Source: a virus
Lineage: Duplodnaviria > Caudoviricetes
Length of the DNA: 64,000 nucleotides
Reading direction: 5' to 3' (one strand)
IMG/VR virus record: IMGVR_UViG_2823592041_000002
Coordinates: 1-64,000 of that record
Of the stretch, positions 2,841 to 14,856 are shown in pieces. The notes below the pieces were generated by a model. It was not told the origin of the DNA, did not search any database, and was given only the letters and a program-made list of their open reading frames with translations. Position 1 is the first letter of the stretch. Each line of letters starts with the position of its first letter. Position numbers and translations under genes: made by a program.

Positions 2841-2920
2841 TTCTCTCTCCTTTTAGTTTCTGGGGTCTTCTCTCTCACCCCTACGATCTGATCTTAACAG
2901 ATTTGACTAGTGAATGTCAA
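2841..2920 (-). promoter_or_regulatory. early promoter, GATC class (copy 2) with 5' hairpin leader
   Basis: TTGACA-18-TAAGAT-CAGATCGTAGGGGT...ACCCC...CTAAAAGGAG. Confidence 0.8.
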
Positions 2921-4869: not shown

Positions 4870-5460
4870 TCACATTCCCATTTTTCCCAACACTTTGTTA
4901 ATACTTCGAGCCATTTTCAATAGTGATCTGTTTTCGAAGAATAGACCTCTTACAAAGTACATTTCAGTCAAACTTCGATAAAACCACTTTTGTTTTTCTT
5001 TCCCAGACTTGAATTTCAGAAATACCGCATCTCCGACTTTCAAGAACTGTTCAAGGGTTTCAGTGATATTGTGTAACTTATCCGCAGCAGATATCACCAC
5101 CGCCCCTTCTGGAGCGTCTGTTAACATTTTGATATACCTTACCTTTCTTTCAGCCCAAGACAGTTCTGGTGATTTATCTTCAGTAACATACTCCACAAGA
5201 TTCGAAATCTCTTCCCCGAAACTTCTTCTCAAGTCTTCCAAGGTGGCTTCCGTATCTTCTATAGTATCGTGTAGTAATCCTGCAATTACGATTTCTTCTG
5301 AATACCCATGTTTGTGTAATATCCTTGCGACTTCCATACAATGTGTTATATACGGTCTTGTCGTACCCTTACGGACTTGTCCTTTGTGACAATCTTTTGC
5401 AAATCTCAAAGCAGACTCTCCCATTGGGGTGTTCAGAAATTTCTTTCCTACCGAAGACAT
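4870..5460 (-). CDS. small alarmone hydrolase (Mesh1/SpoT HD domain)
   Basis: HKGQVRK, PYITH, LLHDTIEDT, FGEEI, ADKLHN all present. Confidence 0.85.
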   Translation of the reverse strand: MSSVGKKFLNTPMGESALRFAKDCHKGQVRKGTTRPYITHCMEVARILHKHGYSEEIVIAGLLHDTIEDTEATLEDLRRSFGEEISNLVEYVTEDKSPELSWAERKVRYIKMLTDAPEGAVVISAADKLHNITETLEQFLKVGDAVFLKFKSGKEKQKWFYRSLTEMYFVRGLFFENRSLLKMARSINKVLGKMGM

Positions 5461-5471
5461 TTTCTCTCTCC

Positions 5472-5696
5472 TTACAAATAATAATTCCTAACTAGTTCAA
5501 GTTTATGTTCTAACCTGTCCCTGTTCAATAATTTGATTGCCCTTGGGGTTACAGACACAGCTCCTACATCTTTCAGACTTTTGATAACCGTGAGTAAATC
5601 GTTGTACTGATACCCACCATAGTTTGGGACAACTTGTCCTCTATCTTCTAAATCCTTAACCAACACATTCAAAATTTCTAGTTTAATGTTTTTCAT
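5472..5696 (-). CDS. small winged-helix-like protein
   Basis: Helix/turn/strand pattern (IKSLKDVGAVSVTPRAIKLL); strong RBS. Confidence 0.55.
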   Translation of the reverse strand: MKNIKLEILNVLVKDLEDRGQVVPNYGGYQYNDLLTVIKSLKDVGAVSVTPRAIKLLNRDRLEHKLELVRNYYL

Positions 5697-5720
5697 AACT
5701 CTCTCCTTTTATGTCAAATA

Positions 5721-5990: not shown

Positions 5991-6000
5991 CTCTTCTCTC

Positions 6001-6050
6001 CTCACCCTTATGATCTGATCATAACTGATATATGAAGGTTTGTCAATAGC
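6001..6050 (-). promoter_or_regulatory. early promoter, GATC class (copy 4)
   Basis: TTGACA-17-TATGAT-CAGATCATAAGGGTGAG. Confidence 0.85.
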
Positions 6051-6062
6051 TTTTATAAAATA

Positions 6063-7136: not shown

Positions 7137-7339
7137 CTCACATTAAAATCTTCACCCCTCATCATCAATTCAGTCTGATAAGAGTTTAGATGCCAAATGG
7201 CTCTTTGTCGCTCATCATCTGTCTTTGCTTTTTTGTATTTTTCTTTATACTCTAAAACGAGTTCTTGAAGTTTCTCTGTAGTCAAAACGATTTCCTCCCT
7301 ATAAGGGTTCCATTCATAATAGTATTCTTTTAATTTCAT
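7133..7339 (-). CDS. hypothetical protein, probably leaderless mRNA
   Basis: Only 6 nt between -10 box and ATG, no SD. Confidence 0.7.
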   Translation of the reverse strand: MKLKEYYYEWNPYREEIVLTTEKLQELVLEYKEKYKKAKTDDERQRAIWHLNSYQTELMMRGEDFNVR

Positions 7340-7378
7340 ACTAAGATCGTAACTTATTTGAGATTGATTGTCAATAGT
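7340..7378 (-). promoter_or_regulatory. early promoter, GATC class (copy 5), leaderless
   Basis: TTGACA-17-TACGAT-CTTAGT-ATG. Confidence 0.8.
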
Positions 7379-7383
7379 TTTTT

Positions 7384-7463
7384 GAGAAGTGTTCGAGATG
7401 TTATCCTTTATGTAAGGTAAGAGAGAAAGGTTAAAGGAGAGAGGATAACATCTCGAAACACTC
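7384..7463 (-). ncRNA. long stem-loop with anti-SD-rich loop (candidate sRNA / 3'-UTR element)
   Basis: Perfect 16-bp stem (7392-7407 / 7442-7457), extendable; 34-nt loop CTCTCCTTTAACCTTTCTCTCTTACCTTACATAA on minus strand; strand inferred from flanking genes. Confidence 0.55.
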
Positions 7464-7594
7464 TATAAATTTTTTAATAATGCACCTAATACTACTCCAA
7501 GGACTCCTAAGACAGCAGCCCATTCGAATATACCAACTCCATAAAAAGATGGTTCTTTGTTATCTCTTAAAAATAAAGATTTCTTTTTTTTCAC
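7463..7594 (-). CDS. small membrane protein (43 aa)
   Basis: GTG start, ...GIFEWAAVLGVLGVVLGALLKNL*. Confidence 0.45.
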   Translation of the reverse strand: MKKKKSLFLRDNKEPSFYGVGIFEWAAVLGVLGVVLGALLKNL

Positions 7595-7713
7595 GATTTA
7601 CCTTGGAAGATTCGCCCAAACGAACCAAGACCAAGCTTTTTCATTTTCATTCATTTTTCACACCTTATACTATAATTAGAATACAAAACTTAATCAAAGG
7701 TAAAGATAACCTT

Positions 7714-8796: not shown

Positions 8797-8800
8797 TTCA

Positions 8801-8878
8801 ATCTCCTTTTAGTTTCTGGGGCCTTCTTTCTCACCCCTACGATCTGATCTTAACATATGGCCAGAAAAAGTCAATAGT
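8801..8878 (-). promoter_or_regulatory. early promoter, GATC class (copy 6) with 5' hairpin leader
   Basis: TTGACT-16-TAAGAT-CAGATCGTAGGGGT...GCCCC...CTAAAAGGAG; leader near-identical to copy 2. Confidence 0.8.
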
Positions 8879-8894
8879 TTTTTAAAATTATTTT

Positions 8895-10123: not shown

Positions 10124-10182
10124 ATGGGGGTGGCGTAAACCACCCCCATATGAGAGTGAAAGGATGCACTAAAAGGAGTGCT
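10124..10182 (-). terminator. 3'-UTR with anti-SD hairpin and GC-rich terminator-like stem
   Basis: GCACT-CCTTTT-AGTGC, ATCCTTTCACTCTC, then ATGGGGGTGG-TTTACG-CCACCCCCAT (no clear U-tract). Confidence 0.6.
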
Positions 10183-10488
10183 TTACTCGGTGTTTGTTAC
10201 GATGTTCCTAAGTTGTGTAAGAGTGAGAGGAGAGAGAACATTGGAAACATCTTCACCGATTCGTGATATATTTTTTCTAGTTGTCGTCACCCACCATAAT
10301 GGCATCGCTAACATGTTATCCTCATAAGTCAGTAAACTTTTAGGGTACCACACGTTATCTAATAGGAAAGCTTTCTGCGTTTCCTTTTCTGATCTCTCTC
10401 GCAGTTGGTCTCGACTTATCGGTAAGACTACGTAGTGTTCGACCTTGTTACTTGCTTTTCTTTTCTTTGGTATTACATGTACAGTCAT
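10183..10488 (-). CDS. hypothetical protein
   Basis: ETQKAFLL...VWYPKS motif seen in small phage beta-barrel proteins; GAGG RBS. Confidence 0.65.
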   Translation of the reverse strand: MTVHVIPKKRKASNKVEHYVVLPISRDQLRERSEKETQKAFLLDNVWYPKSLLTYEDNMLAMPLWWVTTTRKNISRIGEDVSNVLSPLTLTQLRNIVTNTE

Positions 10489-14733: not shown

Positions 14734-14756
14734 AACAAAACCTTTTTATAAGTTTA

Positions 14757-14843
14757 CGGAAGATACAGGATTCGAACCTGTGGTGGACGTTAATCCACAC
14801 TTGCTTTCCAAGCAAGCACCATAAACCACTCGGACAATCTTCC
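14757..14843 (-). tRNA. tRNA-Ser (GGA anticodon), long variable arm, CCA not encoded
   Basis: GGAAGAT/ATCTTCC acceptor, CTTGC-TTGGAAA-GCAAG anticodon arm, ACAGG-TTCGAAT-CCTGT T arm, G discriminator. Confidence 0.95.
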
Positions 14844-14856
14844 GTTCTCTAATTTA

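Follow-up and report, generated by a model that had tools for sequence, protein, structure and literature searches.

A conserved hairpin with a G-free loop antisense to early leaders is a candidate regulatory RNA of a marine T4-like phage

To our knowledge, little is known about the regulatory RNAs of lytic phages, and next to nothing about those of marine T4-like phages that have not been cultured. What, then, is a long hairpin with a wide open loop doing between an operon's last stop codon and the next promoter in the genome of such a phage? The hairpin lies in a 136,879-bp IMG/VR contig, estimated to be 76% complete, whose first 64 kb form the stretch of DNA analysed here (64,000 nucleotides, referred to as the window). 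The DNA has a G+C content of ~32% and encodes domains of a T4-like myovirus, namely gp5, gp6, tail-sheath and an AAA_5/CobS-like ATPase. GenBank phages included no close relative, a protein search giving only distant Methylophilales phages, and all of the relatives that were found come from marine metagenomes. From position 1 to ~32.9 kb the genes run on the minus strand, among them the window's single tRNA gene, for tRNA-Ser (anticodon GGA), at 14756-14844.

The two perfect arms of the hairpin, at 7392-7407 and 7442-7457, are 16 nt each, 100% complementary and separated by 34 nt, exactly as a preliminary description of this DNA had reported. They make up the longest perfect inverted repeat in the 64-kb window, and the helix extends to 21-22 bp once one bulged U is allowed. 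Read on the minus strand, the whole element occupies 7384-7463, the span of our covariance model R1, to which it scores 106 bits. Its 5′ arm (7442-7463) begins with the last base, G, of the TAG stop codon that ends the upstream ORF, and is followed by a G-free, CU-rich loop of 34 nt (7408-7441) and then by the 3′ arm, which together with three unpaired bases at the model end covers 7384-7407. The fold of the gene strand has a free energy of -27.8 kcal/mol (z = -6.8), a value equalled by none of 200 shuffles; the z-score of the plus-strand fold is -4.2. In folds of 400 nt the hairpin was retained and its loop stayed open. When the 136,879-bp contig was scanned for stems of at least 11 bp with loops of at least 18 nt lacking either G or C, only this hairpin and one AT-only palindrome qualified. 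A search of Rfam 15 with 7384-7467 gave best scores of 16-20 bits against gathering thresholds of 75-200, and the plant miRNA and snoRNA models concerned are chance matches.

To follow the element in related phages, we collected 17 distinct variants from marine viral and metagenomic contigs by three routes: neighbouring proteins, a loop pattern and the covariance model. Collection by loop pattern is biased toward conservation of one part of the loop (box 2, below), and the variants anchored on proteins are unbiased as to the loop. At loci anchored on protein alone, the hairpin was present in 10 of the 10 examined. Neither a covariance-model search nor a structural scan of 50 loci around distant LPD29 homologues found any more hairpins, and GenBank phages contained no near-identical DNA. 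Searching IMG/VR with the 16-mer arms returned mainly chance matches to a single arm, together with two true relatives.

In the model-guided alignment of the 17 variants (A5), both sides had changed in 13 of the 21 stem pairs, and 98.3% of 355 cells were paired, compared with 41-47% when the partners were slid. None of 500 shuffles reached the observed values for cells paired, for pairs and cells changed on both sides, or for the covariation score. An earlier MAFFT alignment of 11 variants gave an agreeing picture, with six compensatory pairs. The element is thus an RNA motif supported by covariation and not in Rfam. G·U pairs are found in 38 cells on the gene strand. Read on the plus strand these become A·C, and 88.7% of cells are then paired, as against 98.3%. 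The hairpin is therefore a genuine, conserved structure that forms in RNA, with the sense of the flanking genes.

The question of strand bears directly on two other explanations. The preliminary description had put forward, as an alternative, a plus-strand RNA rich in SD and GGA motifs that would sponge ribosomes or CsrA; a plus-strand pseudo-leader with its own promoter is a related idea. The plus-strand sequence does read like an early leader with a strong SD, and there is a T-run after the stem. However, the 38 G·U cells contradict such a reading, the minus strand carries every neighbouring gene and every strong promoter, and there are no conserved -10 and -35 boxes upstream and no start codon after the SD in the window. 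We give these plus-strand readings almost no weight. Use of the loop SD by a plus-strand ORF was separately considered and rejected, as an ATG found in one lineage is not conserved, and the pseudo-leader promoter was rejected for want of acceptable boxes. The second explanation is an element that acts as DNA, for example by extruding a cruciform, by binding a protein at an inverted repeat or by serving recombination or replication. It would suit a unique long inverted repeat with a polypurine/polypyrimidine spacer, in a region of promoter-cassette recombination (PMC4122927). The strand-specific G·U covariation nevertheless points to RNA, and the arm sequence is free to vary as long as pairing is kept, unlike that of a protein operator. 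The 34-bp spacer would in addition probably be too short for invertase-type switching. We therefore consider an element acting as DNA very improbable.

The loop is conserved in a different manner from the stem. G is absent from 17 of 17 loops, which are 28-43 nt long with ~35% C; the combination of stem covariation and a conserved loop, proposed in the preliminary description as a check in related phages, was thus found. While the stem drifts, two near-fixed boxes persist, CUCUCCUUU adjoining the 5′ arm and CUCUCUU(U)ACCUUACA adjoining the 3′ arm. In the window, box 1 reads CUCUCUCCUUU on the RNA (7433-7443, minus strand) and is complementary to AAAGGAGAGAG SDs. Box 2 reads CUCUCUUACCUUACA (7411-7425, minus strand) and is complementary to the 5′ part of early leaders (UGUAAGG.../GGUGAGAGAGAAG). 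The conserved CU-rich motifs that are complementary to early-gene SDs are of the CCUU type. Between the boxes indels are tolerated. One variant (L090:487-575) carries a (CU)n expansion in mid-loop, bringing the loop to 43 nt, which suggests slippage of a dinucleotide run and tolerance of changes in inter-box length. Both boxes are retained in every variant found by protein, including the most divergent, L114, whose 5′ arm departs from that of the window at ~9 of 21 bases. Judged from these comparisons, the loop sequence is under constraint beyond its composition. Box 2 was also set against the AAGGUAA of 16S rRNA, which we take to be conserved and to lie in a buried region; the match is 7 nt.

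The position of the hairpin is equally well defined. The order on the minus strand is a 43-aa ORF, the hairpin, an A-run, the promoter TTGACA-17-TACGAT and an ATG. The 43-aa ORF (7463-7594, minus strand) is hydrophobic and is the last gene of its operon, and its stop codon (7465-7463) abuts the stem. Just upstream of this membrane ORF is a conserved mini-ORF of 18 codons with its own SD (7599-7655, minus strand; start MNENEKAW), whose first 30 bases are near-invariant at the nucleotide level among four aligned relatives. Going upstream from the hairpin, the first strong promoter is that of the cassette at 8874-8847, and under its control are the LPD29 gene (8796-8311) and five or six small ORFs; the hairpin therefore closes the LPD29 operon. 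From 8874 to 7463 no strong promoter or terminator was predicted, and a single transcript over this stretch is putative.

Nine nucleotides past the stem there starts a sigma-70-type early promoter (7346-7374, minus strand; TTGACA, 17 nt, TACGAT), whose -35 box is kept in all relatives but one and whose spacer is variable. The A-run between the hairpin and the -35 box, and the 'CTA' before TTGACA, recur at other early promoters, and are hence promoter features rather than parts of a terminator. A comparable hairpin stands upstream of none of those promoters. The downstream 68-aa gene, P0002 (7133-7339, minus strand), has its ATG 6 nt past the -10 box and no SD. In relatives it shows synonymous changes from codon 1, and it has 39 homologues of 66-70 aa; its mRNA is probably leaderless. 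A single open frame of 126 nt (7339-7465) runs in this genome from the TAG through the hairpin and the promoter to the next ATG; it is not conserved in relatives and is probably due to chance. Read-through or gene fusion across the hairpin was rejected, the distance from TAG to ATG being 122-137 nt in the 17 variants, with every remainder modulo 3 and with stops. A 6S-like mimic of an open promoter was also considered, and no feature supported it.

Stable and placed where an operon ends, the hairpin might be an ordinary intrinsic terminator with an oversized loop. On the gene strand, however, the stem is followed by CUUCUC and an A-run, with no U's, and a consensus scan did not call a terminator. 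Moreover, the loop sequence is conserved, and its length of 28-43 nt exceeds by far the usual 3-8 nt, a disparity that the preliminary description had already pointed out. It would surprise us greatly if this were the function of the element.

Termination by Rho has more in its favour. Rho is active in the early transcription of T4, and its primary site recognises YC dinucleotides. A rut-like, G-free and C-rich loop just past the stop codon could load Rho and so end early transcription before the next promoter and the leaderless gene. All variants offer 28-43 nt with no G and ~35% C, the (CU)n expansion in L090 is tolerated, no U-tract is present for intrinsic termination, and the element stands at the operon end immediately upstream of a promoter. 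Yet rut sites need neither a stem nor a fixed sequence, and both are conserved here; ~34 nt is short for a full rut site and is enclosed by the stem. The antisense relation to leaders described below would, moreover, have to be a coincidence. We regard a Rho-loading site as improbable, though worth keeping in mind.

Repeated promoter-leader cassettes occur at early promoters of this phage, and in the window they drive the genes starting at 2840, 8796, 1373 and ~6005. The copies (2841-2925, 8797-8880, 1374-1460 and 5991-6052, minus strand) consist of TTGAC(A/T), a -10 box overlapping GATC, and a leader with a small GGGG...CCCC stem-loop and the RBS AAAAGGAGA. Relatives have the same cassettes, of which L095 and L107 contain several copies, or a second type of leader with UGUAAGG directly after the -10 box. 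Composite motifs of a stem-loop and an early promoter, termed PeSL, have been described in T4-like phages; their stem-loops are short (Gn-loop-Cn or similar), occur many times per genome and are viewed as terminators or recombination sites (PMC2839356, PMC4122927). Like a PeSL, our hairpin is a stem-loop with a sigma-70-like early promoter directly behind it, and it belongs to the variable early part of a T4-like myovirus genome that has repeated promoter-leader cassettes. Unlike a PeSL stem-loop, it is present in a single copy, with 21-22 bp and a large loop conserved in sequence. The cassettes themselves resemble mobile regulatory cassettes of the PeSL type, but with the stem-loop downstream of the promoter.

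We then compared the loop with the ribosome-binding sites and leaders of the phage. The sequence AAAGGAGAGAG is found four times in 136,879 bp. Three of the copies are minus-strand RBSs, of the genes starting at 2634, 2840 and 5696, and the fourth is on the plus strand, within the loop. A 10-mer, AAGGAGAGAG, lies upstream of the start at 5460, and GGAGAGA upstream of the start at 2151. The exact 11-mer complements claimed earlier for the first three genes, and the near-matches claimed for 5460 and 2151, are therefore all present. The RBS region of the gene starting at 2634 (2637-2652) contains a perfect complement of 12 nt, which extends to ~24 of 28 nt with gaps; the RBS of the gene starting at 5696 (5699-5709) has one of 11 nt, and that of the HD-domain gene starting at 5460 (5464-5473) one of 10 nt, all on the minus strand. 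The best predicted partner of the loop in this genome is the paralogous promoter-leader cassette of the gene starting at 2840 (2841-2920, minus strand), with -34.6 kcal/mol and matching blocks of 8 and 11 nt. The promoter and leader cassette of the LPD29 operon (8797-8874, minus strand) supplies a candidate partner in cis. GGAGAG-type SDs are nearly confined to the starts at 2151, 2386, 2634, 2840, 5460, 5696 and 5990 on the minus strand, between 2.1 and 6 kb, and the genes at 8-32 kb have mostly GAGG or AAGG.

The reverse complement of the loop resembles an early leader as a whole, in which box 2 takes the place of the leader's 5′ part and box 1 that of the SD. The earlier claim that the loop is complementary to early SDs thus holds, and the match proves wider than was claimed, since the whole early leader is mirrored. 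The accompanying proposal that the loop mimics the 3′ end of 16S rRNA is a less apt description, because the matched SDs extend into AGAG, which can pair with the loop and would not do so with a canonical 16S tail; this argument starts from the usual CCUCC tail.

How far these matches exceed expectation depends on the measure. Perfect complements of at least 10 nt were found at five TIRs, compared with a mean of 0.2-0.4 for shuffled loops, and none of 300 composition-matched shuffles reached five; the five TIRs share one common SD motif, are not independent and count as about one match. A longest match of at least 12 nt was reached by 2-4% of shuffled loops. The duplex energy to 30 TIRs was no better than that of composition-matched shuffles (p 0.18-0.24; top five, p ~0.08-0.10). 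The affinity of the loop is thus mostly a matter of composition, that is, of generic pairing of CU with AG.

The arrangement of the matches is more specific. Collinear two-block matches to the phages' own promoter-proximal leaders beat dinucleotide shuffles in seven of eight genomes (the fraction of shuffles reaching the real sum was 0-0.025, and 0.13 in L083), by a statistic that was picked after the pattern had been seen and in genomes that are related to each other. The blocks are, for example, 9 and 12 nt in L112, and 8 and 11 nt in the window. For the LPD29 leader the two-block matches amount to 13-21 nt in the eight genomes, above those of shuffled loops in most, and the leader of the own operon was the best or second-best match in most genomes. 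A leader:loop duplex was predicted to outcompete the 21-bp stem in five of eight genomes, as did at most 1 of 150 shuffled loops; RNAcofold cannot draw pairing of a loop with a linear partner without opening the stem, and the result shows only that such a duplex can win over the stem. In their collinear arrangement, therefore, the loop and the leaders are complementary beyond what composition gives.

One match is specific to a lineage. In L114 the loop ends in CCUUAU and the leaders start with AUAAGG. Most other variants have CCUUACA in the loop (two with one base different), and UGUAAGG leaders are found in the L112, L115 and L074 lineages. In a matrix of loops against leaders across genomes, no preference for own over other leaders was seen, and for the window's loop the leaders of L074- and L112-type phages are a closer match than those of its own genome. 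That loop and leaders have co-evolved is therefore not established.

A conserved hairpin whose G-free loop is antisense to the phage's own early leaders makes a good candidate for a new phage regulatory RNA. Tentatively, and at somewhat less than an even chance, we favour the interpretation that the loop pairs with early leaders, acting as an anti-leader or anti-SD RNA; we divide this roughly evenly between action in cis and in trans. The structured RNA would be made within the early minus-strand transcript, and its helix of 21-22 bp, starting from the last stop codon of the LPD29 operon, would keep the 28-43 nt G-free loop open. In cis, the loop would pair with the leader of its own operon and close the message 5′ to 3′, in the manner of the icaR 3′UTR. 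In trans, the hairpin would be excised at its AU-rich flanks and would then target the early mRNAs that share the leader cassette. In either case pairing would hide the SD and the 5′ end and lower translation, and it could form double-stranded RNA for RNase III. That such pairing takes place, in which mode and to what effect, we infer from the arrangement described above.

The hairpin sequence has no dedicated promoter and no U-tail or terminator of its own, so that a discrete sRNA would need processing. The data are explained equally well by a trans-acting sRNA and by an interaction between the 5′ and 3′ parts of one operon mRNA. Topology limits how far a closed loop can pair with long targets, and the likeness of loop and leader could also be the relic of an inverted leader copy that was retained for another reason.

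Both modes have counterparts in staphylococci. S. aureus RNAIII hairpins and RsaE are trans-acting sRNAs with C/U-rich loops that pair with SDs. They have their own promoters and terminators, loops of ~6-12 nt and UCCC motifs. The phage element is like them in presenting on a stable stem a G-poor, CU-rich loop complementary to the purine-rich RBSs of several mRNAs, and it has the conserved single-stranded seed, complementary to several targets, of a base-pairing sRNA acting in trans. It is unlike them in its 34-nt loop, in its CCUU-type motifs, in having neither a dedicated promoter nor a U-tail, and in that its putative targets are the phage's own early genes. In the icaR mRNA of Staphylococcus aureus, a pyrimidine-rich anti-SD motif in the 3′UTR is complementary to the SD of its own leader, and the pairing has been proposed to block ribosome binding and to make a substrate for RNase III (PMC3868564). 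The phage loop likewise carries a pyrimidine-rich motif that matches the leader SD of its own operon. It differs from icaR in belonging to a polycistronic phage operon, in displaying the motif in the loop of a long closed hairpin, and in having two boxes, which cover the 5′ end of the leader as well as the SD. The leader is in addition common to several other phage promoters, so that action in trans is possible as well.

A bolder form of the proposal is that the excised hairpin accumulates as a 'master anti-leader' RNA of the phage and switches off a whole class of early genes, which we consider doubtful. Such an RNA would pair with the 5′ end and SD of the leader cassette common to many early promoters, would spare leaderless genes such as the one just downstream, and would be an RNA counterpart of the early shut-off by RegB and RegA of T4. 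Of these two proteins, RegB is a nuclease and RegA a repressor. Both take part in the shut-off of early translation in T4 (reviewed in PMC3014915). The proposed outcome would be alike, with GGAG-type early RBSs taken out of use during infection, but the phage element is an RNA and not a protein. A homologue of the translational repressor RegA is encoded at 84799-85158 of the genome, outside the window (145 bits). A search of the 76%-complete contig for RegB found none, and is uninformative since the control genomes also gave none. If pairing between loop and leaders is real, one small RNA structure would serve the phage to time or balance a whole set of early genes, by closing a message 5′ to 3′ or as an anti-leader acting in trans, and the repeated promoter-leader cassettes of T4-like phages would be tied to a common post-transcriptional control.

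The stem is open to another explanation, that the hairpin is a processing or stability element at the operon end: RNase III would cut the helix there, or the helix would stop 3′ exonucleases, and in this way the message of the LPD29 operon would receive its 3′ end. The loop would then be conserved through the binding of a protein, for example ribosomal protein S1 or a phage factor, and not through pairing with leaders. S1 favours single strands rich in pyrimidines. In the early mRNAs of T7 and SP82, cistrons are separated by RNase III sites; these have small loops or internal bubbles, and no antisense relation to leaders. Our hairpin resembles these sites in being intercistronic, with about two helical turns, on an early polycistronic phage message, its cleavage being putative. 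It differs from them in its large loop antisense to leaders. A near-continuous helix of at least ~20 bp has the length of an RNase III substrate, and at 21-22 bp the stem warrants the term 'RNase III-like' used in the preliminary description, as regards length only. That the helix is held at 21-22 bp with compensatory changes, that it begins at the stop codon between A/U-rich single-stranded flanks, and that the pairing energy is no better than composition predicts would all be accounted for by processing or stabilisation. Such a function leaves unexplained why the loop is collinearly antisense to leaders beyond shuffles, and why two boxes are fixed in a loop whose middle tolerates indels and (CU)n, and no candidate for a loop-binding protein was identified. 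We think a processing or stability element unlikely, while giving it serious consideration next to the anti-leader RNA.

Two further CU-rich elements occur together elsewhere in the window. A weak look-alike of the hairpin is found at 10185-10258 (minus strand), inside the ORF at 10183-10488, with an 8-bp stem, a 34-nt CU-rich loop and the shared GAUGUU...AACAUC. It scores 17 bits with the covariance model (E 0.26), and comparably weak matches (15-18.5 bits) are found in four relatives, with one third-position change in L010; the look-alike may be a paralogue or due to chance. The 3′UTR that follows the same ORF (10124-10182, minus strand) contains a second CU-rich 3′ element, made up in order of a small hairpin with UCCUUUUA in its loop, AUCCUUUCACUCUC, and a G+C-rich hairpin of 11 bp.
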